Shown here: one piece after another, positions 12,612 through 64,000 of the stretch
How the letters are laid out: each line of letters opens with the position of its first letter
Position numbering within the stretch: position 1 is the first letter of the stretch
Origin: an uncultured Candidatus Saccharibacteria bacterium
GTDB taxonomy: Bacteria; Patescibacteriota; Minisyncoccia; UBA6257; 1-14-0-10-40-38
Reading direction: 5' to 3'
Assembly (NCBI GenBank): GCA_964543265.1
Contig: CAZIWN010000002.1
Span: 29,554-93,553 of the forward strand
Length of the DNA stretch: 64,000 bases
The notes under the pieces: generated by a model
What the model saw: only the letters and a program-made list of their open reading frames with translations
Database searches by the model: none
What the model was told of the DNA's origin: nothing
Program-made: the position numbers and the translations under genes

Positions 12612-12839
12612 ATGAGAAAATGTGCAATTTGCTCCAAGGGTTCATTATTGGCTGGAACAAGAAAGCTATTAAGAGGCCACTATAATCCAACCGGCTGGGA
12701 GAGAAAATACCCAAATCTTCAGAAAACAAGGCTAGGAACCGGCCGTCGTGTTTTAGCTTGTGTTACTTGTATAAAACAAATTTCAAAAAGCGCAAAACCA
12801 GTAATCCCAACCAAGAAAGAAACAGTATCAGTTAAATAA
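12612..12839 (+). CDS. rpmB: 50S ribosomal protein L28
   Basis: 75 aa; MRKCAICSKGSLLAGTRK...RKYPNLQKTRL...RVLACVTCIK matches the L28 pattern (C-x-x-x-GK, R(K/R)xxPNLQ, second Cys pair). Confidence 0.75.
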   Translation: MRKCAICSKGSLLAGTRKLLRGHYNPTGWERKYPNLQKTRLGTGRRVLACVTCIKQISKSAKPVIPTKKETVSVK

Positions 12840-12841
12840 TT

Positions 12842-12872
12842 AAAAAACACCGGATTAATCCGGTGTTTTTTA
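12842..12872 (+). terminator. rho-independent terminator of rpmB
   Basis: aaaaaACACCGGAttaaTCCGGTGTtttttt lies 3 nt after the rpmB stop. Confidence 0.75.
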
Positions 12873-12929: not shown

Positions 12930-13000
12930 CGGGCTGTAGTATAACGGTAGTATATACCCTTGGGGTGGGTACGAACCGGGTTCAACTCCCGGCAGCCCGA
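12930..13000 (+). tRNA. tRNA-Pro, anticodon GGG (71 nt, no encoded CCA)
   Basis: Hand-folded cloverleaf. Acceptor CGGGCTG/CAGCCCG plus discriminator A. D-arm GTAT-AACGGTA-GTAT (two G.U pairs). Anticodon stem TACCC/GGGTA with loop TTGGGGT. T-arm CCGGG-TTCAACT-CCCGG. If the anticodon stem is shorter, the anticodon could instead be read UGG, which is still Pro. Confidence 0.8.
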
Positions 13001-13012
13001 CAAAATATCAAA

Positions 13013-15487
13013 CTACTTAATGATTGCCTTACTGTGAAGTTTTAAAAACTTATCATCTATCATTCTCTCTATCTCTCCTCGAGGACTTCCGTAAACCACT
13101 CTAGACAACTCCTTTATTTTTTCAGAAATTCCAGAACCACTCCTCACAGGATCTGTAATTTTTAAACTAAAAGCTGGTGCCGTCTGTCCATCAATTAAAA
13201 TTCTAGCGTAGCAATTAAAATTATCTATATTCATCAAATCATTTGCCGTAAATTCCGGAGTAAACTCTTTTTCCAATAAATCACCATCATCAGCCCCAAC
13301 TCTAAACGCAATCTTTGAACCAACATTCCCAAAAACCGCTTTAGATATATTTTCACTCAACTGCCCCACAAATTGATTGGCAATTATAAGATTCAATTTA
13401 TACTTTCTAGCCTCTGATAGTATTTTCTCGATAGAGTTTGTTGTTACGTTTTGAAATTCATCTATATAAAGATAAAACGGTTTTCTGTCGCCTTCCTGAA
13501 TATTAGACCTAGAAAAAGCAGCTAAAGCAATTTTACCAACAATTATTAAACCAATAAGAGCAGAATTTAGCTCACCAAGTTTACCCTTAGAAAGATTCAC
13601 TAGCAAAATCTTTCCAGAGTCCATAACCTCTCTAAAATTAAAAGAAGATTTTTCCTGCAAAACTATGGGGCGCATTATATCGTTTGAAAGAAACGAATCG
13701 AATTTTGACGATATGTATGGAATCATATTTTGCAAACTTGCCTCTCCCCCAGCCTTTTCAGCGATCTCTTTCCAAAATAATTTAACTAATTGATTTTTAC
13801 ATTTTTCAAGCTTCATTTCCCTGAATTTCTTATCTGCAAAAACCAAATTTATTTCCAACAAAGTATTCCCCAACTCCGGGCTATCCATCACTAAAGAAGT
13901 TGCATTTCTAAAATATTGCTCGAACATTGGACCACCAACGGTTTTCATATCGTATAATTTATTAAATATTTCCAAAAGCTCATTTATCACAAAAGTTTTT
14001 TGTTCAGGAAGCTTTTCGTCATATTCAAGCATATTTAAAGCCAATGGCCTCTCTGTGTCGCTAGGATTAAAATATATAACATCTTTTGCTCTTTCTTTTG
14101 GAATTTTAGACAAGATATCCTCAACAGCATCACCATGCGGATCAATAAAACAAACTCCCTTACCAGAGTTAATATCCTGAATAACCAAATTCTTTAAAAA
14201 ACTAGTCTTACCAGTTCCAGTTTGCCCTATTACATACAAATGCCTTGCTCTGTCATCATCCTTCATGTAAATATTTTTTTCTTCTCCTCTAAAAATATTT
14301 TTTCCTAAAAGAATTCCAGATTCTGCAATGTTAAGCGGTGCAGAACTCTGCTTTGCTTTTGAAGCAGAAAGTAGCGCATGAAAAATATTATTTGGAAAAT
14401 GAATCAAGCTGGATAATTCTTCCGTAGAAACATATGTAGCAGAAGATTTTTTTACAGGAGCTCTAAAGACGAAATCGTAAACAAACTTTTTTAACTTATT
14501 TTTTTGAATTTTTTTTACATTTAATCTATTAACCTCTTCCAAATTAAACTGAGAAAAATAAGAAGAAAATTCATCTATCAAAGCATCTGCCCTCTCTTGT
14601 GTTTGGGCAGAAGATAAGATTCTTAAAGTTGATTCAAAAATTTGTTTTTGTGATTTTGTTTTTAAAGCATTTACCAATCCCTCATCAAAATAAGTATTTA
14701 CACCCAAATCCCCAACTTCATCTTTTTTCTTATTTTTAGACATAGCCTCCCTCAACCCCTTGCCACTTTTAACATTTTTAGCCACATCTGAAAGACGCTT
14801 ATTATAATAACCCTTAGAGTATCTGCCAATAATTTGTATGGCTAAACTTTCGTTTTCTTTTTGGATTTTTGAAAAATTATTCAATAAAACGCTTAAAGGA
14901 TCTATCTCCATGCCATTGTAAGTTTTTATTGGCAAAAATTTATTTTTAGCAGTTATCATGGCTCCAGAAACCATTGACCCAGCTTTAAACATCTTATAAC
15001 CCCTAACATTATTTAAAATTGCCTCTGGATATATTCCTTGAATACTTTTTGATATTGATTTTTCATATTTTTTAGGAATTAAAACAAAAAATTCTATCTG
15101 TTGACCAGAATTCTGAACAACCACCTCCATAGAAAAAAACGGCTCACCATATAAAAAACCCTTAAACCCTCCCCTCTTAATGGTTATAAATTGAGAAAAA
15201 ACCTGTTCCATAATGGAAATTTTTTCTCTAATCTCTGCTAATCCCATTTTTTCCTTTTGGTCCTTGTTTTGATTATTTTTTGGAAATTGAACGTTTATAA
15301 CAGAAAGTCCCAAAGAATCTGAAAAAAATCCTTTTCTTAAAAAGAAATTTCTCAGAAAAATAAAAACAACAGAAATAACTAAAACAAATATAACGAAAAT
15401 TAAAAAACCGCCACTAAATATAAAATTAGTTAAAAAATCAATAATTCCAAAATTATAATCCTGAAACGATGAAAAAATATCGTTCAT
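13013..15487 (-). CDS. type IV coupling protein-like ATPase (VirD4/TraD/TrwB family; N-terminal TM anchor)
   Basis: 824 aa. N-terminal hydrophobic helices are present. The Walker A block VIGQTGTGKTSFLKNLV...GVCFIDPHGD matches TrwB GATGTGKS...VIVDPNGD. Walker B is YLYIDEFQNV. The C-terminal T4CP signature is ARKYKLNLIIANQFVGQL...FGNVGSKIAFRVGADDGDLL. HerA/DUF87-like ATPases share the DPHG motif, so exact family assignment needs HMM confirmation. Confidence 0.7.
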   Translation of the reverse strand: MNDIFSSFQDYNFGIIDFLTNFIFSGGFLIFVIFVLVISVVFIFLRNFFLRKGFFSDSLGLSVINVQFPKNNQNKDQKEKMGLAEIREKISIMEQVFSQFITIKRGGFKGFLYGEPFFSMEVVVQNSGQQIEFFVLIPKKYEKSISKSIQGIYPEAILNNVRGYKMFKAGSMVSGAMITAKNKFLPIKTYNGMEIDPLSVLLNNFSKIQKENESLAIQIIGRYSKGYYNKRLSDVAKNVKSGKGLREAMSKNKKKDEVGDLGVNTYFDEGLVNALKTKSQKQIFESTLRILSSAQTQERADALIDEFSSYFSQFNLEEVNRLNVKKIQKNKLKKFVYDFVFRAPVKKSSATYVSTEELSSLIHFPNNIFHALLSASKAKQSSAPLNIAESGILLGKNIFRGEEKNIYMKDDDRARHLYVIGQTGTGKTSFLKNLVIQDINSGKGVCFIDPHGDAVEDILSKIPKERAKDVIYFNPSDTERPLALNMLEYDEKLPEQKTFVINELLEIFNKLYDMKTVGGPMFEQYFRNATSLVMDSPELGNTLLEINLVFADKKFREMKLEKCKNQLVKLFWKEIAEKAGGEASLQNMIPYISSKFDSFLSNDIMRPIVLQEKSSFNFREVMDSGKILLVNLSKGKLGELNSALIGLIIVGKIALAAFSRSNIQEGDRKPFYLYIDEFQNVTTNSIEKILSEARKYKLNLIIANQFVGQLSENISKAVFGNVGSKIAFRVGADDGDLLEKEFTPEFTANDLMNIDNFNCYARILIDGQTAPAFSLKITDPVRSGSGISEKIKELSRVVYGSPRGEIERMIDDKFLKLHSKAIIK

Positions 15488-15864
15488 AAAATTTCTCTTC
15501 TTTTTAAAAGCTCATTATAATAATCCGGATTTTGAGATAGAGTGTTCCATAAATCTTCCACAGCATTTGGATCTTCTAAAACCATATCAACACCTCTCGC
15601 AATGCCATCTTCAAAAACAACATATATCGGAGAGTCGGACTCCAAAACAACATCTCCCCTACCAACTTCCTTCTTTGGTTTATCGATAGCCCCATTCACG
15701 CTATCTTTACCAGCCACAAAATCCCGAACAATTGTCTCTTTTCTAAGGTGTTGCTCACTAAACCCACCCAAAGCACTCTCGCGCCTAGGAGCTTCTTTTT
15801 TTTCCTCCTTAATAACCTCAATCGTCCCGCCACTTTTATTATTAAAAACATCTTGACCTTCCAT
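15484..15864 (-). CDS. hypothetical soluble protein, translationally coupled to the downstream ATPase (ATGA overlap)
   Basis: 126 aa, no TM, charged. Its stop overlaps the ATPase start by 4 nt. No recognisable motif. Confidence 0.45.
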   Translation of the reverse strand: MEGQDVFNNKSGGTIEVIKEEKKEAPRRESALGGFSEQHLRKETIVRDFVAGKDSVNGAIDKPKKEVGRGDVVLESDSPIYVVFEDGIARGVDMVLEDPNAVEDLWNTLSQNPDYYNELLKRREIL

Positions 15865-15977
15865 AATTAAATATTATATCAGAATTTATAATTAATAACT
15901 TAAATTACTCCCAACTATAGATAGTTAAATAGAGAAATTCGTAGTAATATTTAATAAAACATAAGTAAAAAAATAAA

Positions 15978-18900
15978 ATGATTTTACAACCACATAAGCA
16001 CGCATTTAGATCAATATTGCTTACAATCTTTATGGCGAGCTTCGCGCTCTTTTTATTCGTAAATTTTAGAAACACTCCAGAAAATACAGCTTTAGGAGTA
16101 AGCTGTCCGGCTGGCATTGCCGGTCAAATGGATTTATGTCCATCAACCAGAATTCCCCATCAGGGTGATACCGTTCAATTCACTGTTAACACCAGACAAG
16201 CCCAGTCCGGAATATCTGTAACTATTTATATTGGAGGTAGACCAGGAAGCGATGGCTACATCACCAATCCTCAAATTTTCACAACGGGCTCAACAAATTC
16301 TAGTGGAAATTTTGACTTCTCTTATACTGTTCCATCTGGCGACGCCTGGAACACTTTTCACTATTTTAGAGCAGAAGCCACTGTCGGAGGATCTCTCTTA
16401 AAAAGTAATCAAGTAGCCCTAACCGTAATTCCAAAAACAACCGATGCTGACTGGATCTTAACTCCAACGACTTATTGCCAAGTACAAACTGGTGGCAACT
16501 GTACTCCAATTAATAATTCATACCCACTCGACAAAGTTTACCCCCTAGCAGCAACAGGAGACGTAATTTTGCTTGAAGACGGTCAATATAATCATGCAGA
16601 ATTTAAAAGAAGTTGTCATAGTCAAACGGGACCAATGATCTGGGTTATGGCTAGAAACATAAACGGCCCAGTTTTTAATCCAAATCCTGTCGGAAGCAGC
16701 GATACAATATCTTTTAATCAAAAAAGCTGCTGGACTACATTAGTTGGTTTAAAAATTATGGGCGATGATAGAGCTGGAGTTCATTTTGTTACTTCAACCA
16801 ATAATGGACCGTACTTAAATGATCAATTTTTAGAAGTCACCATAGATGGTGGATGGGATTATTACAATAATTCTGGAACTACGGCAAAGTGGGGATTTCA
16901 ATCATACGGACTGCAAGGCTTTAGATATGTCGGAGGGGAAGTAAAAAACGTAGGAGATATGTCTGTTGGAGAACATGCTTTTTATATGCATAATCCAGAC
17001 ACAGACGCTACGGGTAATGCAATTGAACTTAGAGATGTTAATTCATCTAACGTTGGAAGAACATACGTACAAATAGTAAACAGGCCAGATGACTGCAGTT
17101 ATGCCAACCCTTGCCCACCAGGAAGTGGAATAGTCACCATAGAACATGCCGTCATTAAAAATACTGGACTTGAAGGTAATTGCACGGGAGGATCATCTTT
17201 AACTTTTGGTGGAAGAAACGACTACAACATTATAGTAAGTAATACATATGTAGAATCTGGTTTAGATACAGGGCTTTCATGTAAGGGAACTGGAGAATTT
17301 GTCACTTGGGACGGAAACAATGTTCCAGCAGAAAATAACGGCCCAACAACTGTTAGAAATTCATACTTCATAATGGCTCCTAATCAAGGTAATAAGCCAT
17401 TATCAGAAATCGGAACAGTTGATTCAATAACTATAGAAAAAAGCACATTCATTAGCGGAAAAACTTATTCGATGAACGCCAAAAAAAGTGCCGTTACTAA
17501 ATGCTTTGATAGAGATTCAAATATAACTGGAAATCCAGAAAAGAGAGTTACGGTTGACGGCGTAGATTATGCAAATTACCAAGCCATGTTAGACGCCTTA
17601 GGAGATTGCGGAAGCTCTGGAGGAAATCCAACAGTAACCCTTTCAGCCACCGATGCTAATGCCTCAGAAACAGCAGGAGATCCGGGAACATATACAATCT
17701 CAAGAACTGGAAGTACTGCAAATTCTTTATCTGTGAAGTTTTCAGTTTCCGGAACCGCCACCAACGGAACAGATTACAATCAAATCAATTCGCCAGTAAC
17801 AATCCCAGCGGGGGCATCTAGTGTAACAGTGCAACTATCCCCCATAGATGACACCTCTGCTGAATCATCAGAGACAGCAATATTAACCCTAAACTCTGAT
17901 CCATTGTATATAATCGGCTCTCCAAGCTCCGGAACGGTAACTATTGCCGACAATGATAGCGGAGGAGGGCTTCCAACTGTAACGGTTTCAACAACAGACG
18001 CTAATGCTTCTGAAACAGCCGGTGATACTGGAACTATAAAAATAATAAGAACTGGTTCAACAGCCAGTTCGCTAACTGTCTATTTTTCTATCTCAGGAAC
18101 AGCCACTAATGGTTCTGATTATTCCTCCATAAGTTCGCCGATAACAATTCCATCTGGAACCTCAACGGTAGCAATTCAAATCTCTCCAATAGACGACACC
18201 TCTATCGAATCATCAGAAACAGCCATAATCACCATAACCTCAAACGCCAGCTACACAATCGGCTCTCCAAGCTCCGGAACGGTAACTATTACTGACAACG
18301 ATAGTAGCAGCACGCCAACAGTAAGTCTCACAACCACAGACAGTAGCGCATCCGAAGCTGGACTAGATCCGGGAAGCTTCACCCTCTCAAGAACAGGAGC
18401 AACAACCAATCCATTAACTGTTTCTGTCAGTATTTCCGGAACCGCTACTAACGGAACGGATTATAATCAAATAATTTCCCCCATTACAATTCCGGCAGGT
18501 TTATCTTCAACCAATATAAACATTACACCGGTAGACGACATATCAGTTGAAAACACAGAGACGGCTGTTATAACTATTAATTCAGATCCATCTTATATAA
18601 TTGGCTCTCCAAACACCGGAACTGTTAACATCTTAGACAATGACGGAGTTCCACCTCCCCCGCTACCAACAATAAGTGTCATAGCCAATGACCCGACATC
18701 GTCTGAACCTGGATCAGATACTGGAAGCTTTACGGTCTCAAGAACAGGATCAACAACAAATTCCTTGACTATAATATTCACAATGTCGGGCACAGCCACT
18801 AACGGCTCAGACTATCAGCAAATAAATTCACCAGTAACAATTCCAGTAGGATTTTCATCTGTCTTCGTTAACCTAACACCTCTCAATGATTCCAGTATAG

Positions 18901-20198
18901 AAAATACAGAATCTGCAACCCTAACCATATCTCCAGACTCATCATACTCCATCGGTTCACCAAATAGCGCCTCCGTAGATATTCTCGATGATGATAGTGC
19001 TCCTCCACCAACCCCAATAGTCAGCATCGCAGCTAACGACCCAACAGCCTCTGAATTAGGACTAGATAATGGAATAATAACCATCTCCAGAAATGGCTCA
19101 ACAATATCCCCTCTCACAGTATCTTTCATAATCTCAGGAGACGCTATAAATGGCACAGACTATAATCAAATATTTTCATCAGCCACAATAGGAAGCGGTC
19201 TCTCTTCTGTTTCTATAAATCTAACACCGATCAACGATACAATTATAGAAAATACAGAGACCATAACATTAACAATAGCCTCCGATCCAAACTACGTAAT
19301 AGACACTCAAAACACCGCCACGGTCAACATTCTAGATGACGACAACACCCAGCCAAATCCCCCACCACCACCAACAAATCCGACAAACACCCAGCAGGCA
19401 CCTTCCAACTTCTCTGGATTAGCTCTTTCACCAAGTAAAATATATCTTAGCTGGAATTTGGTTTCTGGAGCTTCTGGAATAGAATTGTCTGAAAGTTCAG
19501 ATAATATTACCTTTGGTAAAATATATAATTTACCAGGAAATTATTACTACTATAAATTAGACGTAGTACCCGGAAGTACTCATTACTACAGAGTTAGAAG
19601 CTATGATAGTTCAGGAAGCTACTCGAGCTATTCAAACTCAACCCAGGTTTCAACCTCAAATTCAACGTCGCAGTTTACTAAGCTTCTTTATCAAGGAGTT
19701 AGCGACAAAGAAGTTTCCATACTTCAAGAGTGTCTAAAAACAGATTCTACTATTTATCCAACCGGTAAAATAACTGGCTACTTTGGACCATTAACCGAAA
19801 CTGCTGTTAGAAACTTCCAAAATAAATATGGAATAAATTCGATAGGTATAGTTGGACCACTCACAAGAGCTAAACTCAACACCGTATGCTCCCCATCATC
19901 TACAAGCTATCAATCACCAGCCGCCACAGCTCTAAAAATATCTGTAAATTTCAATCTAAGTTTTGACACGATTCTTGGTCTTGGAAGTTCAGGTGATCAA
20001 GTCTCTCTTCTTCAGGCTGTTTTAGCCAAAAATCCTAGTCTTTATCCTTCAGGAATCATTTCTGGCTACTTTGGACCATTAACCGAAACTGCTGTTAAAA
20101 ACTTCCAAAATAAATACGGAATAGAGCCGCTGGGAACGGTTGGCACAAAAACAATAATAAAACTAAACGAAATAAAGTCAGCAGGAATTAATCCATAA
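15978..20198 (+). CDS. giant cell-surface protein: N-terminal membrane anchor, right-handed beta-helix-like domain, 5 Calx-beta repeats, FN3-like domain, 2 peptidoglycan-binding (PG_binding_1) domains
   Basis: 1406 aa. Calx-beta units read TV(T/S)xSxTDxxASExxxDxGxxxISRTGSTxxxLxVxxxxSGTATNGxDYxxIxSPxTIPxGxSSxxxxxxPxxDxxxExxETAxxTxxS...IGSPxxxxVxIxDxD, five times. A Pro-rich linker PPPPTNPTN follows. C-terminal duplicated LxQGVSDKEVSILQECL...ITGYFGPLTETAVRNFQNKYGI is a PG-binding-1-like motif. Confidence 0.8.
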   Translation: MILQPHKHAFRSILLTIFMASFALFLFVNFRNTPENTALGVSCPAGIAGQMDLCPSTRIPHQGDTVQFTVNTRQAQSGISVTIYIGGRPGSDGYITNPQIFTTGSTNSSGNFDFSYTVPSGDAWNTFHYFRAEATVGGSLLKSNQVALTVIPKTTDADWILTPTTYCQVQTGGNCTPINNSYPLDKVYPLAATGDVILLEDGQYNHAEFKRSCHSQTGPMIWVMARNINGPVFNPNPVGSSDTISFNQKSCWTTLVGLKIMGDDRAGVHFVTSTNNGPYLNDQFLEVTIDGGWDYYNNSGTTAKWGFQSYGLQGFRYVGGEVKNVGDMSVGEHAFYMHNPDTDATGNAIELRDVNSSNVGRTYVQIVNRPDDCSYANPCPPGSGIVTIEHAVIKNTGLEGNCTGGSSLTFGGRNDYNIIVSNTYVESGLDTGLSCKGTGEFVTWDGNNVPAENNGPTTVRNSYFIMAPNQGNKPLSEIGTVDSITIEKSTFISGKTYSMNAKKSAVTKCFDRDSNITGNPEKRVTVDGVDYANYQAMLDALGDCGSSGGNPTVTLSATDANASETAGDPGTYTISRTGSTANSLSVKFSVSGTATNGTDYNQINSPVTIPAGASSVTVQLSPIDDTSAESSETAILTLNSDPLYIIGSPSSGTVTIADNDSGGGLPTVTVSTTDANASETAGDTGTIKIIRTGSTASSLTVYFSISGTATNGSDYSSISSPITIPSGTSTVAIQISPIDDTSIESSETAIITITSNASYTIGSPSSGTVTITDNDSSSTPTVSLTTTDSSASEAGLDPGSFTLSRTGATTNPLTVSVSISGTATNGTDYNQIISPITIPAGLSSTNINITPVDDISVENTETAVITINSDPSYIIGSPNTGTVNILDNDGVPPPPLPTISVIANDPTSSEPGSDTGSFTVSRTGSTTNSLTIIFTMSGTATNGSDYQQINSPVTIPVGFSSVFVNLTPLNDSSIENTESATLTISPDSSYSIGSPNSASVDILDDDSAPPPTPIVSIAANDPTASELGLDNGIITISRNGSTISPLTVSFIISGDAINGTDYNQIFSSATIGSGLSSVSINLTPINDTIIENTETITLTIASDPNYVIDTQNTATVNILDDDNTQPNPPPPPTNPTNTQQAPSNFSGLALSPSKIYLSWNLVSGASGIELSESSDNITFGKIYNLPGNYYYYKLDVVPGSTHYYRVRSYDSSGSYSSYSNSTQVSTSNSTSQFTKLLYQGVSDKEVSILQECLKTDSTIYPTGKITGYFGPLTETAVRNFQNKYGINSIGIVGPLTRAKLNTVCSPSSTSYQSPAATALKISVNFNLSFDTILGLGSSGDQVSLLQAVLAKNPSLYPSGIISGYFGPLTETAVKNFQNKYGIEPLGTVGTKTIIKLNEIKSAGINP
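17627..19350 (+). repeat. five tandem ~345-bp intragenic repeats encoding the Calx-beta modules
   Basis: Unit starts recur at ~17627, 17972, 18315, 18666 and 19014 (ccaacagtaac / ccaactgtaac / ccaacagtaag / ccaacaataag / ccaatagtcag). Units are related but diverged, so they are not recent duplicates. Confidence 0.8.
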
Positions 20199-32666: not shown

Positions 32667-32785
32667 CTGCCGGCATAGCCTACTTTCCCGACCACCAAAG
32701 CAGCAAGTATCATCAGCTTTATACGGTTTCACTTCCGAGTTCGGAAAGGGATCGGGTGGGTCACGTATAAACAAAACACCAGCAG
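32667..32785 (-). rRNA. rrf: 5S rRNA
   Basis: Minus-strand sequence CTGCTGG...CCGAACTCGGAAGTGAAAC...GGTCGGGAAAGTAGGCTATGCCGGCAG has the helix I closing pair and the conserved CCGAAC/GAAGTGAAAC loop C region. ~119 nt. Confidence 0.85.
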
Positions 32786-32911
32786 ATAAAAATCCAGAAA
32801 CGTTAATAAAGAATATATTTATAGAATCAATAACCGATACAAAATAGTCATTTGGACTTTAAATTTTGATATTTAAAGTTATCATAACGTGCTTTCCGTT
32901 ACGAAAAATAT

Positions 32912-36028
<3,117 letters not shown>

Positions 36029-36149
36029 ACATATATATTTCTCGTAACGGAAAATACATTATTTCCCGTTACTTAAAGTAATTTCACAAATGACTTGTTG
36101 TCTTTCATTCTACTTAAAAATGCTCTTTTGTACCTGTGTATTTCTACAC

Positions 36150-49094: not shown

Positions 49095-52000
49095 CTATTC
49101 GAATGAAACAGTGCTTGTGATTGGGATAATTCTGTCTTCGAGATATAAGGTCTCAGAAGCTGAATTTCCTTGAGATGACCATGTCAAAGCGGAGCTGCTT
49201 CCTAACTGCCATGACAAGCTGTCAGAAGTATTGGCAACGTTAGCAAATGCAGTCGAATCAACTCTCAACTTGAACACTTTGGATGTTCCTTGTGTTACAA
49301 GATAAGGAGTTGGAAGAGTCATTCCTAATCCAGTTGTTGTCGCATTTGTTGCGCTGGTGGTAGAAGTGATTGTGCTTCCTGTATCGCTGTCTACAAGTGA
49401 TAATGTTATGCCAGTTGCTCCAGATCCTAGGGCTGCACCAGAGAACTTGATTTGGAGAGTCTTTAACTCAACACCGTAATTTGCATCAGCGGTTATGGTT
49501 ATAGTTCCAATATCATCGTTCGCCTGTCTGGTTCTATTAGAAGTTGCTCCTAATGTTCCCAAGGCAGGGGTAAGCTTTGTTCTCAAAGCAGTTTGAATGT
49601 TTGAGGTCAAAGTCTGTGTGCTGCTAGAAGTTGTAGCAGTAACTTGCGTGTTCGAATCAACTCCGAAAGCTTTAATATCACCTCCTAATGTTGGAGTTGT
49701 ACTCGCAGAATTAATGGTGAATTGATAAAGCTTATTATGAGATGAGGTTGAATTCGTGAACGAAGCAACGTCTCCCTTCAAGGTATATGTCTTGGTTGTA
49801 TTCTTTGGAACAATCATAGAGCTTCCGAATGAAAAGTCAGAAGTATAATATGATGTCGAAGAAGCGACCAAAGAAGTTCCCGTTGGGCCAACTTGTGTAG
49901 CTCCGTCAAAGAATCTTAGATTGCTGAAAGTAGCAGGAGCTCCAGCAGATGTAGAAGCTGTAATTCTCAAGGTATCAAGTCTGATATCTTCATTATTATC
50001 AGCTGTAAATCTGAATTGAGCCAATGTTACACCATTTGATCCTAATACTATCTGTTGAGCAGATGGAGTAGAAGTATCAACTGTAGCAGTCAAAGTTCCA
50101 GCAGAAGCAACAACTATGTTTTGTCCATAGATTGGGTTAGATGAAGAAACAGCTGCACTGGTTGTTGCCAATGTCTGACTGCTTCTTGTAACAGCCCCAA
50201 CTCCAGTTGCTCCAGTGATTGATGTTGGAGCGCTGTATGTTGCAGCAGATGAACCGCTCAAAACATCTCCATAAACATCAAGGGTAATAGATGATCCGGC
50301 TGGGATCAAAGTTACGCCATTTGGTGATGTAAATGTGTATGCAGTAGAAGCGGCCAACGTTGGAACGTTATAGTTCCATTCTGTTGAACCATTCTTAACT
50401 CTCAAGTTTTGGACCTTCAATCCCGATGTAACATCCGAGGATGTTTTAACCGTGACATTGCTGACTTCAATTCCTTCAGCCGAAGAAGCTGAGAATGAGT
50501 ATGAACCCAATTTTCTCATTTGTCCTCCAGCTACATAGGTCTGAGCTCCAAATCCAGTGTTTTGTGAGGCCAAGAATGGAGAAGCAATGATTGTCAAAGC
50601 TGATCCATCCAATGTTCCTCCTGGAGCAGAAGCAGTCTGGAACGAAACTTGTCCTTCTATGTTAGATCCAGTAAATCCGGATGTTCCTGAAGGAGCAACT
50701 AATGATCCCTTAATAGAGCTAGAGGTTGCAGTTGTAGGAATTTCTACCTTCAAGCTCAACACTCTTGTAGTATTAGCTGGAATTATATAGTTGACGTTTG
50801 AAGAACTAGAACCAAATGAACAAATATAGGTTGCGCTCGTAGCTGCTGTTGCATATTCAGCAGTTCCATAAGTGCAAGATGATAATGTTCCAATTTCAGT
50901 TCCAACCTGTATTCCGTCATCTCCAACTAAACTTACGGCTCCAATTAAGCTGTCAATGTTTCCAGAGGAAACGCTAACTCCAGCAGTTGTGCTTGCTGTG
51001 AAGGTTAGTTTAAATGGTAACCATTTAATTCTAACGGCTTCTCCAGAAGCTCTAAGGTCAAATTTAGCCAAGGTAACATTTGTTGATCCCTTAGCAATAT
51101 TGCCTGTTGGGGTATTAACGTTTGTAGAAGCGGTTACTGTTCCAGCTCTTACTGTAACTTCCGTTGCAGAAGATGATGGTGTTCCACCGCTAATATTGGT
51201 GTTGTACTGTGTATCAGTTACAACCCAATCATATGGTCTCTGTAATTCAATCTTAACTGTTCTATTTGGAGTTCCAAGTACATCAAAGAATAAATCCATG
51301 ACGTGTGTTCCAGTTGTTAAGACTGGAGCGTTGGAAGCCATATCGAAAGTGATTTTTCCAGTAGCATCGGTGGATGCAGCTGTTCCAACAACTTTTCCAT
51401 CAATCATTAACTGGAAGTTTCTTGTATCGCTTCCTTTATTATTAGATCCAGTATCTCTCAAGGTTACATTACTGACCTTAATCGGGCTGTTTGAAACAGA
51501 GATTGTCCAAGCAGCTCCCCTGAATCCCATTGTTCCGGCATCAACAGTAGAAGCAACTCCTGTGTATGCAAAAGTTGCAACTGATGCTAATGATGGATTG
51601 GAAACGCTGGTAGTTACGAAGTTACCTCCATTGATTGGGAAGCTTCCTCCGACAGATCCAGTTGAAAGAGTGATATCAGATGCATTGGCCAAAGTGAACG
51701 ACAACGTATTACCGTTAGAAGCTCCTGTGGACATATCCATTCTGAGCCAAACATCAACAGTCTGACCTGCTGGGACTTCAAACAAATTTCCAGAGAAATT
51801 TACCATTCCTCCAGACAAGCTGTTGTACTGAGCAGCAATTGAACTGCCTACAGACAAATAAGCATTGGTAATGTTTGAATCTGAAACTACACCAGTCTTT
51901 AAGAATTTAGCTCCTGTGACCCAAACGTTTTGGTTTGTGCCGTTAGAAACTTTAAAGTTTAAAACTGGAATTTGAGCTGCGCCAGAAATAACTGATCCTC

Positions 52001-52490
52001 CAACATTAGATCCAGGGACGATAGTTACTTGTCCAGTAACAACTGGGGTAACTGTTGTTCCTCCGTTTCCTGTTGATGGAGTATATACAGCCATTGAAGC
52101 ATAAGCAGCTCTTGATTTAGATCCGAAATATCCTACAGCTGGGCTGATTCCGGAAGCAGATTGCCAAGCGGCAACTGCAGCTTTAGTCAAAGAACCGAAA
52201 TATCCCGTTGCGGAATAATTCAAGTGTCCTTTTGCTCTCAAGACATTCTGTAAGCAAGTAACATCATCTCCCTTAGCACCAACGGTGAGGTCGCGGGTGA
52301 AAGTGCAAGAAGCTGCTGTTGAAACAGAGGATCCTGATTGTAAAGCTACAAGCTGGGCTTGTAATTGGGCGATTTGCTGCAACAAAGCACTGATATCAGT
52401 TGTTTGAGCAGAAACCGATCCAACCAATACTGATCCAGAAAGCCACAAAACTGTCGCTAACACTAACATTCTAGAAAATATTTTACTCAT
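49095..52490 (-). CDS. large secreted Ser/Thr/Gly/Ala-rich cell-surface protein with N-terminal coiled-coil and a peptidoglycan-binding domain (S-layer/sheath-like candidate)
   Basis: 1131 aa. Signal peptide MSKIFSRMLVLATVLWLSGSVLVGSVSA|Q, then LLQQIAQLQAQLVALQ coiled-coil, then a PG_binding_1-like block DLTVGAKGDDVTCLQNVLRAKGHLNYSATGYFGSLTKAAVAAWQSASGI. The remaining ~950 aa are beta-rich and extremely rich in T/S/G/A/V/N with almost no charged residues. Confidence 0.75.
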   Translation of the reverse strand: MSKIFSRMLVLATVLWLSGSVLVGSVSAQTTDISALLQQIAQLQAQLVALQSGSSVSTAASCTFTRDLTVGAKGDDVTCLQNVLRAKGHLNYSATGYFGSLTKAAVAAWQSASGISPAVGYFGSKSRAAYASMAVYTPSTGNGGTTVTPVVTGQVTIVPGSNVGGSVISGAAQIPVLNFKVSNGTNQNVWVTGAKFLKTGVVSDSNITNAYLSVGSSIAAQYNSLSGGMVNFSGNLFEVPAGQTVDVWLRMDMSTGASNGNTLSFTLANASDITLSTGSVGGSFPINGGNFVTTSVSNPSLASVATFAYTGVASTVDAGTMGFRGAAWTISVSNSPIKVSNVTLRDTGSNNKGSDTRNFQLMIDGKVVGTAASTDATGKITFDMASNAPVLTTGTHVMDLFFDVLGTPNRTVKIELQRPYDWVVTDTQYNTNISGGTPSSSATEVTVRAGTVTASTNVNTPTGNIAKGSTNVTLAKFDLRASGEAVRIKWLPFKLTFTASTTAGVSVSSGNIDSLIGAVSLVGDDGIQVGTEIGTLSSCTYGTAEYATAATSATYICSFGSSSSNVNYIIPANTTRVLSLKVEIPTTATSSSIKGSLVAPSGTSGFTGSNIEGQVSFQTASAPGGTLDGSALTIIASPFLASQNTGFGAQTYVAGGQMRKLGSYSFSASSAEGIEVSNVTVKTSSDVTSGLKVQNLRVKNGSTEWNYNVPTLAASTAYTFTSPNGVTLIPAGSSITLDVYGDVLSGSSAATYSAPTSITGATGVGAVTRSSQTLATTSAAVSSSNPIYGQNIVVASAGTLTATVDTSTPSAQQIVLGSNGVTLAQFRFTADNNEDIRLDTLRITASTSAGAPATFSNLRFFDGATQVGPTGTSLVASSTSYYTSDFSFGSSMIVPKNTTKTYTLKGDVASFTNSTSSHNKLYQFTINSASTTPTLGGDIKAFGVDSNTQVTATTSSSTQTLTSNIQTALRTKLTPALGTLGATSNRTRQANDDIGTITITADANYGVELKTLQIKFSGAALGSGATGITLSLVDSDTGSTITSTTSATNATTTGLGMTLPTPYLVTQGTSKVFKLRVDSTAFANVANTSDSLSWQLGSSSALTWSSQGNSASETLYLEDRIIPITSTVSFE

Positions 52491-62421: not shown

Positions 62422-64000
62422 CTAAACCTCTTCATCCATAGGAATCAAGATTTCCCTTGGCTTTGCGCCGTCTCCGGGACCAATAACTCCTTTTTCCTCC
62501 ATAAGATCAATAAGTCTTGCGGCTCTAGCATAACCAACGCGAAGCCTTCTTTGAAGTAATGATGATGATGCCTTCTTCGCTTCTCTCACTATCTCTATCG
62601 CCTCTCTTAAAAGATCGTCATCGTCGCCATTTTCCATATACTTATCAAACATTTGATCATTTTTTGCTTCCCCATTTTCAAAACCACTCAGAACACCTGG
62701 AGCTTTTTCCTTAGTTACATCTTCTAGAATTTTCTCTAAGTGCTTTGTTTCTGGGGCAGTACCCTCTTCTTCTTGAGAGTTGTTATTTTTTAAGAAATTA
62801 GTCACCCCAACAATTTCTTCCTCTGTTATAAACGGCGCCTGAATTCTTTTTGGTTTTGAGTATTCTTGAGACAGCAGCAATAAGTCACCTCCTCCTAATA
62901 ATTTTTCGGCTCCGGCAGTATCTAAAATTGTCTTTGAATCGATTTGGCTTCCCACCTTCAAAGCTAATCTAGTAGTAATATTTGCCTTAATTAACCCAGT
63001 TACAACATCCACCGATGGTCTCTGAGTTGAAAGAAGTAGATGTATTCCTGTAGCTCTAGCCATCTGAGCCAACCTAACAATAGAACCCTCAACGTCTTTT
63101 CCATATCTAGCCATTAAATCGGCCATTTCATCTATAACTATCATTATATAAGGCAATTTCTCTTTAGCCTTAGCATTATAACTCTTTATATCCCTCGAAC
63201 CATTCTCTTGAAGTAATTGATAGCGCTTATCCATTTCATCTATCGCCCACCTAAAAACTCCCATAGATTTTTTTACATCTGTTATAACTGGAGCAACCAA
63301 ATGAGGAATTCCATCGTAGTGAGCCAACTCAACTCTTTTTGGATCTATTAAAATTAATTTCAGAGTTTGTGGCGAATTCTTATATAAAAGAGAAATTAAA
63401 ATACTATGAATTGAAATTGATTTTCCCGAGCCAGAGCTTCCAGCAATCATCATGTGTGGCATTTTTTCAATATTGGCGAATATCGGTTCTCCACTAACGT
63501 CCCTACCAGCAGGAAAAACTAATGGGTCAGCATCTATAAAATCCTTATAAGAAAGAAGATTGCCCAATCTTACAATAGCTGCGGTTTTATTTGGCACCTC
63601 AATTCCCACCAAAGACTTACCTGGAATTGGCGCCTCAATCCTTATTGGATGAGCGGCTAAAGCAAGGGCTATGTCTTGGTTTAATGAGGTTATTTTGGCA
63701 ATTTTAACTCCCTCTGCTGGTTTTAATGTATATCTGGTAACTTTTGGGCCAATATTAATTTCACCCATCTCTACAGGAATTCCAAAACTCTCCAAAGTTC
63801 TTTTTATTATATTAGCGCTACTTCTTAAATCTCCTGACGTAGGTTTCTCAACTGCGGTTTTTAAAAGAGACATTGGTGGAGCAACATACTCTTTCGCATT
63901 AGAGATAGCTGATTTTATATTTAAATTAACTTTTTCTTTAGATTCTGCAACAACGGGCTCAAACTCTTTCTCTTTTTTCTCTTTTTCTTTTTTATTTTCA
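62422..64000 (-). CDS. ftsK: DNA translocase FtsK/SpoIIIE, C-terminal motor domain plus gamma domain; 5' end lies beyond the window
   Basis: Walker A MMIAGSSGSGKSISI, Walker B IMIVIDEMADL, gamma-domain wHTH LLQRRLRVGYARAARLIDLMEEKGVIGP. The reading frame stays open upstream of the track's Met at 63873 (...EKEKKEKEFEPVVAESKEKVNLNIKSAISNAKEYVAPPMSLL), so the gene is truncated by the window edge. Confidence 0.85.
   Translation of the reverse strand, partial: ENKKEKEKKEKEFEPVVAESKEKVNLNIKSAISNAKEYVAPPMSLLKTAVEKPTSGDLRSSANIIKRTLESFGIPVEMGEINIGPKVTRYTLKPAEGVKIAKITSLNQDIALALAAHPIRIEAPIPGKSLVGIEVPNKTAAIVRLGNLLSYKDFIDADPLVFPAGRDVSGEPIFANIEKMPHMMIAGSSGSGKSISIHSILISLLYKNSPQTLKLILIDPKRVELAHYDGIPHLVAPVITDVKKSMGVFRWAIDEMDKRYQLLQENGSRDIKSYNAKAKEKLPYIMIVIDEMADLMARYGKDVEGSIVRLAQMARATGIHLLLSTQRPSVDVVTGLIKANITTRLALKVGSQIDSKTILDTAGAEKLLGGGDLLLLSQEYSKPKRIQAPFITEEEIVGVTNFLKNNNSQEEEGTAPETKHLEKILEDVTKEKAPGVLSGFENGEAKNDQMFDKYMENGDDDDLLREAIEIVREAKKASSSLLQRRLRVGYARAARLIDLMEEKGVIGPGDGAKPREILIPMDEEV

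Follow-up and report, generated by a model that had tools for sequence, protein, structure and literature searches.

A type IV coupling protein-like ATPase of Patescibacteria and its candidate small partner protein

Results

Two coupled genes lie between a tRNA-Pro gene and a giant envelope protein

The locus lies within a 64-kb window (the whole stretch of DNA that was analysed) and comprises two overlapping minus-strand genes, encoding an 824-aa ATPase and a 126-aa protein, together with a neighbouring tRNA-Pro gene and a gene for a 1406-aa giant protein. The two ORFs, the giant and a 113-bp spacer lie where a preliminary description of the sequence had placed them, and the ATGA overlap of the small ORF with the ATPase ORF is present as described. 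The tRNA gene does adjoin the ATPase gene, although the gap is 11 nt (13002-13012) rather than 12 nt. The features are as follows.

12930..13001, plus strand: tRNA-Pro(GGG); neighbour only, convergent with the ATPase gene and outside the module
13013..15487, minus strand: ATPase ORF, 824 aa; Patescibacteria family with DUF8128 and a TrwB/VirD4-like motor (Pfam matches)
13145..14314, minus strand: RecA-like P-loop motor domain, about residues 392-781
13448..13477, minus strand: Walker B region FYLYIDEFQN, residues 671-680 (translation)
13655..14005, minus strand: all-helical insertion inside the motor domain, approximately residues 495-611 (modelled as six helices)
14204..14227, minus strand: Walker A GQTGTGKT, residues 421-428 (translation)
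14315..15307, minus strand: N-terminal DUF8128 alpha/beta domain, about residues 61-391, with a fold like the VirB4 N-terminal domain
15335..15445, minus strand: single N-terminal hydrophobic (TM) helix, residues 15-51 (hydropathy scan)
15484..15864, minus strand: small acidic protein, 126 aa, ATGA-coupled to the ATPase; probable divergent member of partner family c1
15487..15633, minus strand: helical module at the C-terminus of the small protein, residues 78-126, SPIYVVFEDGIARGVDMVLEDPNAVEDLWNTLSQNPDYYNELLKRREIL (MAFFT register against c1)
15865..15977, no strand: AT-rich divergent spacer, 113 bp (sequence)
15978..20198, plus strand: giant envelope protein, 1406 aa, five Calx-beta and two PG_binding_1 domains (Pfam); neighbour only

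A TATAAT-like box in the spacer precedes the ATG of the small ORF by a few nt, and a weak promoter-like site on the plus strand, at 15951-15979, is directed toward the giant protein. A promoter scan of the spacer returned sites no more numerous than in shuffled sequence, and any promoter here is putative.

All ORFs of at least 100 aa in the window were scanned against Pfam. Those with a match were all housekeeping, envelope or regulatory genes, a handful of ORFs matched nothing, and no other T4SS gene, relaxase or integrase was found in the entire 64 kb; the earlier remark that no relaxase, VirB4, VirB6, pilin or integrase lies within 10 kb therefore applies to the window as a whole. Beyond its ends, about 7 kb on the left and 1 kb on the right contributed nothing but ribosomal, murA-type and FtsK genes.

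The ATPase joins a coupling protein-like motor to a VirB4-like domain

The motifs GQTGTGKT and IDEFQN, picked out in the preliminary description, were both located and are invariant across homologues: Walker A in 22 aligned sequences, and the D/E/F/Q/N positions of Walker B in the homologue alignment. The description of the protein as VirD4/TraD/TrwB-like was borne out by Pfam, in which TrwB_AAD_bind (35.2 bits; cut-off 20.5) and TraG-D_C (25.2 bits; cut-off 22) both passed, whilst DUF87, also suggested for searching, fell slightly under its cut-off. A profile search of PDB sequences returned TrwB (E 9e-8) and DotL (E 6e-4). All NCBIfam T4CP models scored far under cut-off (e.g. SXT_TraD, 55 bits against 366). 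Judged by sequence, the protein is nearest to the type IV coupling proteins (T4CPs), and the likeness is measurable and weak.

The AlphaFold model (pLDDT 81) contains a long helix spanning residues 2-58, consistent with the single hydrophobic helix and with the membrane anchor previously proposed. Because R/K residues come after the TM helix, the topology is probably N-out/C-in. The six-helix insertion (H494-599 in model numbering) occupies, in the model, the same position as the all-alpha domain of T4CPs or the helical bundle of VirB4. The motor is structurally equally near to DptH, HerA and TrwB, and T4CP is not separable from VirB4, DptH or HerA by structure alone.

The ATPase is not a textbook VirD4. 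Whereas T4CPs (TrwB of R388, VirD4, TraD, DotL/IcmO, Cag-beta) usually possess two TM helices, this family has one or none, and anchor and motor are separated by an additional domain, about 330 aa long, that adopts the fold of the VirB4 N-terminal domain; moreover, the gene is chromosomal, core and not beside a relaxase or T4SS. The ATPase differs from VirB4 (TrwK of R388; Thermoanaerobacter VirB4, 4ag5) in having no match to CagE_TrbE_VirB or AAA_10 and in not being encoded with VirB3/6/8; unlike VirB3, the small partner lacks a TM segment.

Homologues were found in Bacillus plasmids and phages. A 'DUF87 domain-containing protein' of Tcp-type Bacillus plasmids (NZ_CP032854.1, WP_121549396.1) is homologous over its full length: hhalign of the ATPase family against the Bacillus subtilis plasmid protein gave a probability of 99.9% (E 3e-36) over 676 columns covering both domains, and tblastn gave 22% identity over 89%. 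The plasmid gene occupies the coupling-protein slot of a conjugation operon with the order ATPase, Replic_Relax, TcpC, TcpE and AAA_10 VirB4-like; against that operon's own VirB4-like AAA_10 protein, the family matched only in the P-loop, with an hhalign probability of 2.4%. The plasmid protein differs from the window's ATPase in lacking a TM helix and in carrying a long acidic tail at its C-terminus; its gene, which has no c1-like gene upstream, is plasmid-borne and linked to transfer genes rather than chromosomal and unlinked. In phages, phrog_5156 (Bacillus phage G gp156 / SPO1-like) matches ATPase residues 71-817 (E 2e-80). In phage G, gp156 directly follows gp155, annotated 'VirB-like', and Bacillus phages of SPO1-like and other types encode further homologues. 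These differ from the window's protein in being phage-borne and having no c1 partner, and phrog_5156 is annotated 'function unknown'.

These comparisons make it quite unlikely that the ATPase is a housekeeping DNA translocase of the HerA/FtsK type, serving repair or chromosome segregation and mislabelled as T4CP-like. The window has a separate gene, at 62422-63873, for a genuine FtsK that includes the alpha, motor and gamma domains. Compared with HerA, DptH, FtsK and EccC, the ATPase has no HerA HAS barrel (its N-terminal domain is VirB4-like), no FtsK gamma domain and no nuclease partner, neither NurA nor a Sir2-type protein being encoded adjacently. Its top sequence relatives are TrwB and DotL, and a full-length homologue resides within a conjugation operon.

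The ATPase family is widespread in Patescibacteria and encoded apart from T4SS genes

A single architecture, PF26449 (DUF8128) + PF10412 + PF01935/PF02534/PF12696, is shared by over 5,600 homologues, each about 800-830 aa long. Family matches with a named source all belong to the Patescibacteria/CPR lineage or to an unclassified bacterium, and species-representative genomes contain at least 594 loci coding for the family. Genomic context was compared across 80 related loci, with upstream sequence present for 78. A VirB4-like gene lies within 10 kb in just one of the 80 (L033). The operons that hold the family gene are housekeeping ones: one subgroup has secY-adk-map ... ndk, and in others the gene lies near dnaX or rmuC.

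This setting resembles that of the T4CP homologues reported by Quinonero-Coronel et al. 2025 (PMC12102498), which belong to the same phylum and are near-universal, chromosomal, away from virB4 and without a relaxase; the window gene most probably figures among their t4cp1-type hits. In that study, T4CP homologues occurred in 2,918 of 3,035 Patescibacteria genomes (96%), a count that pools t4cp1 and t4cp2 profile hits, and VirB4 occurred in 2,417 (80%). In our reading, the t4cp2 hits may be FtsK, and the absence of VirB4 from the remainder may partly reflect incomplete MAGs. Only 148 of 5,713 T4CP homologues lay near virB4. That Patescibacteria ATPases of T4CP type are normally encoded apart from T4SS genes was thus already known (PMC12102498), and the 'orphan' state of the ATPase is no anomaly, since its counterparts are near-universal and rarely near virB4.

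A small partner lies beside the ATPase or is fused to it

The 126-aa protein has no match in Pfam, NCBIfam, PADLOC or PHROG, and a single close homologue (69% identical) was found. It occupies the position held in related loci by a family that we term c1. The c1 HMM matches directly upstream of the ATPase in 56 of 78 loci (at most 360 nt away, mostly less than 100 nt), two to three genes upstream in four others, and within the ATPase N-terminus, as a fusion, in 13. Against the 126-aa ORF as single target, hmmsearch with c1 gave E 5e-4. The C-terminal module of the ORF falls in register with the conserved c1 module in a MAFFT alignment. The ORF therefore probably belongs to c1, an assignment that draws on position and on weak similarity (hhalign of the c1 profile against the ORF with P0122: E 2e-4, probability 46%, 46 columns, C-terminal in both).

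Among the 78 full-length ATPases, 62 possess a TM helix and no fusion, 12 (plus one) are fused and have no TM helix, and none has both. In the fusions, c1 takes the place of the membrane helix; since the fused forms have lost that helix, membrane insertion is dispensable. The pairing with a small upstream gene is conserved, so the earlier suggestion of an adaptor or partner is a reasonable reading, and the small protein is very probably a true functional partner of the ATPase.

The tRNA and the giant protein are chance neighbours

The preliminary description had raised the possibility of an integrated element (ICE) decaying at the tRNA. The tRNA-Pro gene does lie 11 nt from the ATPase stop codon, and the family is kin to conjugative coupling ATPases. 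However, no att-like repeat of the tRNA-Pro 3' end was found even when three mismatches were allowed; the 64 kb hold no integrase, relaxase or T4SS gene; the GC content (31-33%) is that of the background; and the flanking genes are housekeeping (rpoD, dnaG, L28, ssb, rpoBC, rRNA). The gene moreover belongs to the core of the phylum, being near-universal and of single-copy type (PMC12102498). Any tRNA lies within 1.5 kb in only 4 of the 80 related loci and tRNA-Pro in none, including the nearest relative (80% identical), which keeps the order ATPase-L28-GT4-dnaG-rpoD and has a 191-aa ORF where the tRNA stands. An ICE remnant is scarcely credible, being effectively refuted by the att, integrase, GC, core-gene and synteny evidence; the ATPase is almost certainly an ordinary, vertically inherited Patescibacteria core gene.

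A second proposal was that the module is minimal recruitment or export machinery dedicated to the Calx-beta/PG-binding giant, with which it shares the 113-bp spacer. About 27 related loci, within one subgroup, do have a gene for a large, fast-evolving protein (440-1580 aa) directly upstream of DUF5663-c1-ATPase. Most of these proteins show one hydrophobic segment near the middle, so a link with big envelope proteins is not far-fetched. Yet of eight such proteins tested, seven had no Pfam domain, one had only a PP2C phosphatase and none had an adhesin domain, and no Calx-beta, PG_binding or adhesin-type neighbour occurs in the 80 related loci. The giant's own N-terminal hydrophobic signal/anchor is consistent with Sec export, its GC content differs (40.7% against a background of about 33%), and the promoter scan of the shared spacer did no better than shuffled sequence. 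Dedication to the giant is accordingly highly unlikely. The tRNA-Pro and the Calx-beta giant are chance neighbours of the module.

Discussion

We cautiously favour, at somewhat better than even odds for the reading as a whole, a two-gene core module that supplies a coupling/energising ATPase and its adaptor to a dispersed T4SS. The 126-aa and 824-aa genes constitute a vertically inherited, Patescibacteria-wide module and no leftover of a mobile element. The single N-terminal helix would tether the ATPase to the cytoplasmic membrane, with DUF8128 (VirB4 N-terminal fold) and the RecA-like motor with its helical insertion forming the cytoplasmic part. By analogy with its structural relatives, the ATPase may assemble into a hexameric ring that uses ATP via the invariant Walker A/B motifs to engage and push a polymer, whether DNA or an unfolded protein. 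The small acidic protein would be co-translated and most likely docks on the N-terminal end of the ATPase by its C-terminal helical module, as suggested by conserved adjacency and by natural fusions that replace the membrane helix; it may serve as adaptor, regulator or docking subunit. For the ATPase, the likeliest role would be coupling or energising the chromosomal Patescibacteria T4SS, which originated from monoderm conjugation systems and has no relaxases (PMC12102498), its other genes lying elsewhere in the genome.

That the module works with a T4SS falls, as a separate claim, a little short of an even chance. T4CP homologues are commoner than VirB4, and the homologue of Southlakia epibionticum is reported to be non-essential where the T4SS is essential (PMC12102498); Wang et al. 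described a T4SS cluster without a recognisable coupling protein (PMC10633639). The window holds no T4SS gene, VirB4-like genes are near-absent from related loci, fused forms have no membrane helix, NCBIfam T4CP scores are low and structure does not discriminate.

Much of this would also suit an exapted, T4SS-independent machine, in which a module from a monoderm conjugative coupling ATPase now serves a separate core process, for example handling of incoming or outgoing DNA, or remodelling of protein or nucleic acid at the membrane or in the cytoplasm. The authors of PMC12102498 themselves leave exaptation possible. Also in its favour are the housekeeping-operon setting almost never near T4SS genes, the motor lying as near to DptH and HerA as to TrwB, and the presence of homologues in Bacillus phages, SPO1-like and others, for which no T4SS is known. 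On the other hand, homologues whose context is informative are confined to conjugation or VirB-like settings, sequence profiles favour T4CPs, the conserved neighbours include no other partner machinery, and the shortfall of VirB4 may be partly one of assembly. We regard exaptation as the less likely reading, though by no means a remote one.

Relative to PMC12102498, whose main text and, by term search, supplements make no mention of DUF8128 or a VirB4-like N-domain, a small partner or fusions, several aspects of the module are apparently new. Over its whole length, the ATPase is homologous to the ATPase that holds the coupling position in a Bacillus plasmid operon of Tcp type. A small unannotated partner is nearly always encoded beside the ATPase or fused to it. 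In the fusions this partner substitutes for the membrane helix, and the window's 126-aa ORF would be a divergent member of its family.

Organisation of the locus

The two genes of the module, encoding an 824-aa ATPase and a 126-aa protein, lie between a tRNA-Pro gene and the divergent gene of a giant protein. ORF, tRNA and Pfam results bore out the features and coordinates of the preliminary description, which are as follows.

12930..13001, plus strand: tRNA-Pro(GGG), convergent with the ATPase gene, whose stop codon is 11 nt away
13013..15487, minus strand: ATPase ORF, 824 aa
15484..15864, minus strand: small ORF, 126 aa, with an ATGA overlap with the ATPase ORF
15978..20198, divergent from the small ORF: giant-protein ORF, 1406 aa

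The small and giant-protein ORFs are separated by 113 bp. The giant protein, initially described as an adhesin, possesses an N-terminal signal or anchor, five Calx-beta domains and two PG_binding_1 stretches, and its gene has a GC content of 40.7% (genome ~33%). The module, at 31-33% GC, matches the background and showed no compositional anomaly. A second large PG-binding protein (49095-52490, 1131 aa, PG_binding_1) resembles the giant protein in being encoded at ~41% GC against ~33% elsewhere; amino-acid composition or a different origin could be the cause of this value in both giant envelope proteins. Scanning for promoters and terminators returned sites no more numerous than in shuffled sequence. 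A clean hairpin and T-run terminator lies at 12843-12872, between tRNA-Pro and a 75-aa ORF (12612-12839) that reads by eye as ribosomal protein L28 and was without a Pfam match at the threshold used.

Annotation of all ORFs of at least 100 aa revealed the window to be the housekeeping core of a low-GC (~33%) Patescibacteria genome. From the left end it contains rpsM, a 5'-3' exonuclease, a histidine kinase, fpg, alaS, rpoD and dnaG, followed by a GT4 glycosyltransferase, the L28-like 75-aa ORF, tRNA-Pro, the module and the giant protein. To the right of the latter lie sodA, a PAP2 phosphatase, ssb, rpsF, rpoC, rpoB, mltG and ftsW, then 5S and 23S rRNA, tRNA-Ala, a glycosyltransferase cluster and the second large PG-binding protein, with clpB, an H+-pyrophosphatase, nusA, recA and a true ftsK at the right end. 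This ftsK gene (62422-63873) encodes alpha, motor and gamma domains and is probably longer than the listed ORF; on the matching public contig its product is at least 723 aa, reaching the contig end. The rRNA region (32668-36031) comprises 5S and 23S, with 16S not found in the window, and the 23S match extends over 3120 nt against a 2925-nt model, suggesting insertions. In CPR bacteria, rRNA genes are frequently unlinked and interrupted.

No gene for VirB4, VirB6, VirB8, pilin, relaxase or integrase was found among these ORFs in the 64-kb window, over which the original remark that no T4SS, relaxase or integrase gene lies nearby thus holds. T4SS genes were likewise absent from the ~7 kb past the left end and ~1 kb past the right end, where only ribosomal-operon, murA-type and ftsK genes were found.

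The ATPase combines a T4CP-like motor with a VirB4-like N-terminal domain

The ATPase had been likened to type IV coupling proteins (T4CPs) of the VirD4/TraD/TrwB type, and Pfam agreed: TrwB_AAD_bind (35.2 bits, cut-off 20.5) and TraG-D_C (25.2 bits, cut-off 22, a small margin) both scored above their cut-offs, whilst DUF87 fell just short (22.8 bits, cut-off 23.2) and FtsK_SpoIIIE lay below (16.6 bits, cut-off 24). The P-loop domain is homologous to TrwB, with Walker A and B intact, and the closest solved relatives by sequence are TrwB (E 9e-8) and DotL (6e-4). PF02534 and PF12696 are annotated in many homologues. The NCBIfam T4CP models all scored far under cut-off (SXT_TraD 55 of 366, conj_TOL_TraD 39 of 648 and CD1115-type 34 of 250 bits), and Pfam returned no match to the VirB4 signature (CagE_TrbE_VirB / AAA_10).

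Two other identities were considered and rejected. An FtsK/SpoIIIE protein is argued against by the motor signature under cut-off and by the separate true FtsK at 62422-63873. A defence-system component was dismissed: PADLOC gave only HerA matches confined to the P-loop and a match of the motor to the MADS defence component mad8 (E 2e-18), the neighbouring genes include none for defence, and no nuclease or effector lies beside the ATPase as in HerA-NurA/HerA defence.

The AlphaFold model of the whole ATPase (pLDDT 81) has the following parts, hydropathy also having been used for the first.

N-terminus: long helix with the sole hydrophobic segment (residues 15-51)
residues ~61-391: alpha/beta domain
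residues ~392-781: RecA-like motor
residues ~495-611: six-helix insertion in the motor
end of the ATPase: C-terminal helices

Foldseek ranked full-length TrwK/VirB4 first, with TrwB next and aligned over the C-terminal half only. Taken with the sequence matches to TrwB and DotL, this ranking indicates a VirB4 architecture whose motor is T4CP-like in sequence. VirB4 proteins carry a helical insertion at the same motor position, so the six-helix insertion does not separate T4CP from VirB4. The ATPase is thus a VirB4-like N-terminal domain joined to a T4CP-like motor with intact catalytic motifs.

It matches neither class entirely. The N-terminal domain of VirD4/TrwB/TraD proteins has two TM helices, whereas the ATPase has one hydrophobic segment; furthermore, relaxase and T4SS genes do not accompany it in the 64-kb window, and a VirB4-like gene occurs within 10 kb in only one of 80 related loci. 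With VirB4 it shares the VirB4-fold N-terminal domain and the RecA-like C-terminal domain, but VirB3/VirB6/VirB8-type genes are not encoded with the family. In a published survey, VirB4 of Patescibacteria is encoded by another gene, near dnaA and pilin genes (PMC12102498).

Coupling-type ATPases of Patescibacteria are as a rule orphans

Precomputed Pfam annotation of the window ATPase places it in a family of ~800-830 aa with a DUF8128 (PF26449) N-terminal domain and a T4CP-like motor; it is 46-57% identical to the full-length members listed and 80% identical to a partial one. A search of a 5.8-billion-protein collection yielded more than 5,600 homologues. Among the matches listed, nearly all are 800-830 aa, the common architecture is PF26449 + PF10412 + PF01935/PF02534/PF12696, and the named sources are Harrisonbacteria, Sungbacteria, Colwellbacteria, Pacebacteria and similar groups, or unclassified bacteria. 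The window ATPase is an ordinary member of its family. At least 594 loci encoding the family were present in species-representative genomes, of which 80 (L001-L080) were kept for neighbourhood analysis. Many TPA_asm MAG records with this Patescibacteria-type locus bear the titles "Bdellovibrionales", "Micavibrio" or "Saccharibacteria", probably unreliable automatic taxonomic labels.

The survey reports T4CP homologues in 2,918 of 3,035 Patescibacteria genomes, with only 148 of 5,713 of their genes near virB4 and relaxases almost absent from the same genomes (PMC12102498). An orphan coupling-type ATPase is thus the rule in Patescibacteria, and its orphan status is already published. As the survey table pools t4cp1 and t4cp2 profile matches (PMC12102498), the approximately two matches per genome are probably the DUF8128 family and FtsK.

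Besides the small partner described below, the neighbours of the ATPase in the 80 loci are lineage-specific housekeeping genes, for example GT39-type glycosyltransferases, ftsQ, dnaX, gtrA, rmuC and secY-adk-map ... ndk. Approximately 27 loci share the operon order large variable protein - DUF5663 - small partner - ATPase. The large upstream proteins (440-1580 aa) are fast-evolving, and in most of them a single hydrophobic segment lies in the middle; Pfam scans of eight gave no domain in seven and a PP2C domain in one. The DUF5663 protein is ~105 aa and the large protein lies ~0.5-5 kb upstream of the ATPase; loci of this kind include L015, L019, L023, L026-L030, L046, L053, L058, L065, L074 and L078. 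The window encodes no DUF5663 protein and no large upstream protein of this kind (cluster c9).

A tRNA gene lies within 1.5 kb of the ATPase in four of the 80 loci, in no case tRNA-Pro. In the closest relative, L006, the ATPase is 80% identical and the order ATPase-L28-GT4-dnaG-rpoD is kept, including the L28-like 75-aa ORF, with a 191-aa ORF replacing the tRNA. This comparison of loci identifies the tRNA and the giant protein as incidental neighbours. The proposal that the module is the remnant of an integrative conjugative element at tRNA-Pro is effectively refuted: no integrase was found in the window, the composition equals the background, and the tRNA-Pro 3' end, which an att direct repeat would duplicate, matched nowhere in the window but in the tRNA itself, even when three mismatches were allowed. 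The alternative proposal, a recruitment machinery tied to the adhesin, is likewise effectively refuted.

A small partner protein is co-inherited with the ATPase

The 126-aa protein matched no Pfam or NCBIfam family and a direct homologue search returned one close homologue only, so its family was reached through synteny. Calling and clustering ORFs in the 80 loci defined a cluster, c1, of small soluble proteins (120-220 aa) whose genes directly precede that of the ATPase and share its strand; they have a variable charged N-terminal part and a conserved ~45-aa C-terminal module (L-x2-L-A-x2-K-G-x3-A-V-x-V-A ... D-x-[FL]-H-D-x-L ... Y-x2-L). When the c1 HMM was run against all six frames, 56 of 78 loci with upstream sequence had the module ending within 360 nt upstream of the ATPase, mostly less than 100 nt away; c1 lay two to three genes upstream in 4 more, and inside the N-terminus of a 905-1016-aa ATPase in 13. 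Amongst full-length family members, 62 of 78 have a TM helix and are unfused and 12 (plus one weak case) are fused and lack the TM helix, whilst none has both. The conserved adjacency and repeated fusion constitute strong genomic evidence that c1 and the ATPase act together. These arrangements also point to an N-terminal location on the ATPase for the partner.

The window ORF occupies the c1 position and is translationally coupled to the ATPase. Its last 49 residues aligned in register with the c1 module in MAFFT, with W/N at positions where the family has H/D, and the similarity was weak in both hmmsearch (E 5e-4, single target) and hhalign (E 2e-4, probability 46%). It is probably a divergent c1 member. 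The family forms 1,223 representative clusters in a 1.84-billion-protein library, all members with a source name being labelled hypothetical, and c1 had no match in Pfam, NCBIfam, PHROG, PADLOC or PDB sequences. DUF8128/PF26449 is unmentioned in the searchable literature; the partner, nameless and so not searchable by name, is unmentioned in the available text of three T4SS papers (PMC12102498, PMC12857230, PMC10633639). In sum, the small partner family is co-inherited with the ATPase, sometimes as a fusion, and the two genes constitute a core module of Patescibacteria that is passed on vertically.

Distant homologues reside in conjugation operons

Using tblastn, full-length homologues with 22-25% identity and 76-89% coverage were found in plasmids and phages of Bacillus. 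An operon of B. subtilis plasmid NZ_CP032854.1 begins with such a homologue, followed by Replic_Relax, two small ORFs, TcpC, a small ORF, TcpE, an AAA_10 VirB4-like ATPase and further transfer proteins. In hhalign, the Patescibacteria profile matched this homologue across both domains (probability 99.9%, E 3e-36, 676 columns) and the VirB4-like AAA_10 protein of the same operon in the P-loop only (probability 2.4%). Distant full-length homologues sit in conjugation operons, and the family, where its context is informative, takes the place of the coupling protein in monoderm conjugation systems. This is consistent with the origin of the Patescibacteria T4SS from such systems, as concluded in PMC12102498.

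In Bacillus phage G the homologue gp156 directly follows gp155, annotated "VirB-like", and phrog_5156 matched the ATPase over residues 71-817 (E 2e-80). Many Bacillus phages (60 records, including SPO1-like, SBSphiC and phage G) encode homologues that are either full-length or of the motor domain, their family, phrog_5156, being without annotated function. That the window gene came from a phage or a plasmid was rejected, relatives in those collections being less than 25% identical. L033 (2499-4976; Parcubacteria GW2011_GWA2_40_143), the sole locus of the 80 with a VirB4-like gene within 10 kb of the ATPase (match of that gene to gp155, E 2e-60), mirrors the gp155-gp156 pair and may be a phage-like or mobile copy.

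Possible roles of the ATPase and its partner

Patescibacteria possess the first T4SS for which an essential role in growth has been demonstrated, its substrate and its energising or coupling components not yet having been identified (PMC10633639, PMC12857230). We consider it possible, at somewhat less than an even chance, that the ATPase serves this dispersed T4SS. By analogy with TrwB, VirB4 and HerA, it would form a ring that translocates a polymer; the small partner would bind its N-terminal region, and the complex would work for a T4SS whose genes are scattered.

Set beside the conjugation operons of the distant relatives are observations that make a T4SS-independent, exapted role the principal alternative: the family has a wider distribution than VirB4, its membrane anchor can be lost, and Southlakia epibionticum can dispense with the T4CP homologue although its T4SS is essential, the survey authors not excluding exaptation (PMC12102498). 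We regard such a role as rather unlikely.

Equally doubtful is a broader proposal, in which the DUF8128 ATPase and its partner would be an unrecognised phylum-wide core machine: a domesticated conjugative coupling ATPase of VirB4 architecture needing no T4SS channel. The small protein would be a dedicated targeting or adaptor subunit able to replace membrane insertion, as in the Paceibacteria-type fusions, and DNA or protein trafficking central to a reduced, host-dependent lifestyle would be a possible role. Patescibacteria make up a large share of bacterial diversity.

The window itself holds neither a mobile element nor an adhesin-specific secretion system. The near-universal Patescibacteria T4CP homologue is instead a distinct ATPase with VirB4 architecture and a dedicated, unannotated partner, the fusions providing genetic evidence for their joint action. 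Three features appear undescribed, namely the resemblance of DUF8128 to VirB4, the existence of a dedicated partner and the alternation of TM helix and fusion, and they render the question of the role of the ATPase testable, the partner and the DUF8128 domain offering two concrete handles on whether it serves the T4SS or has been exapted.
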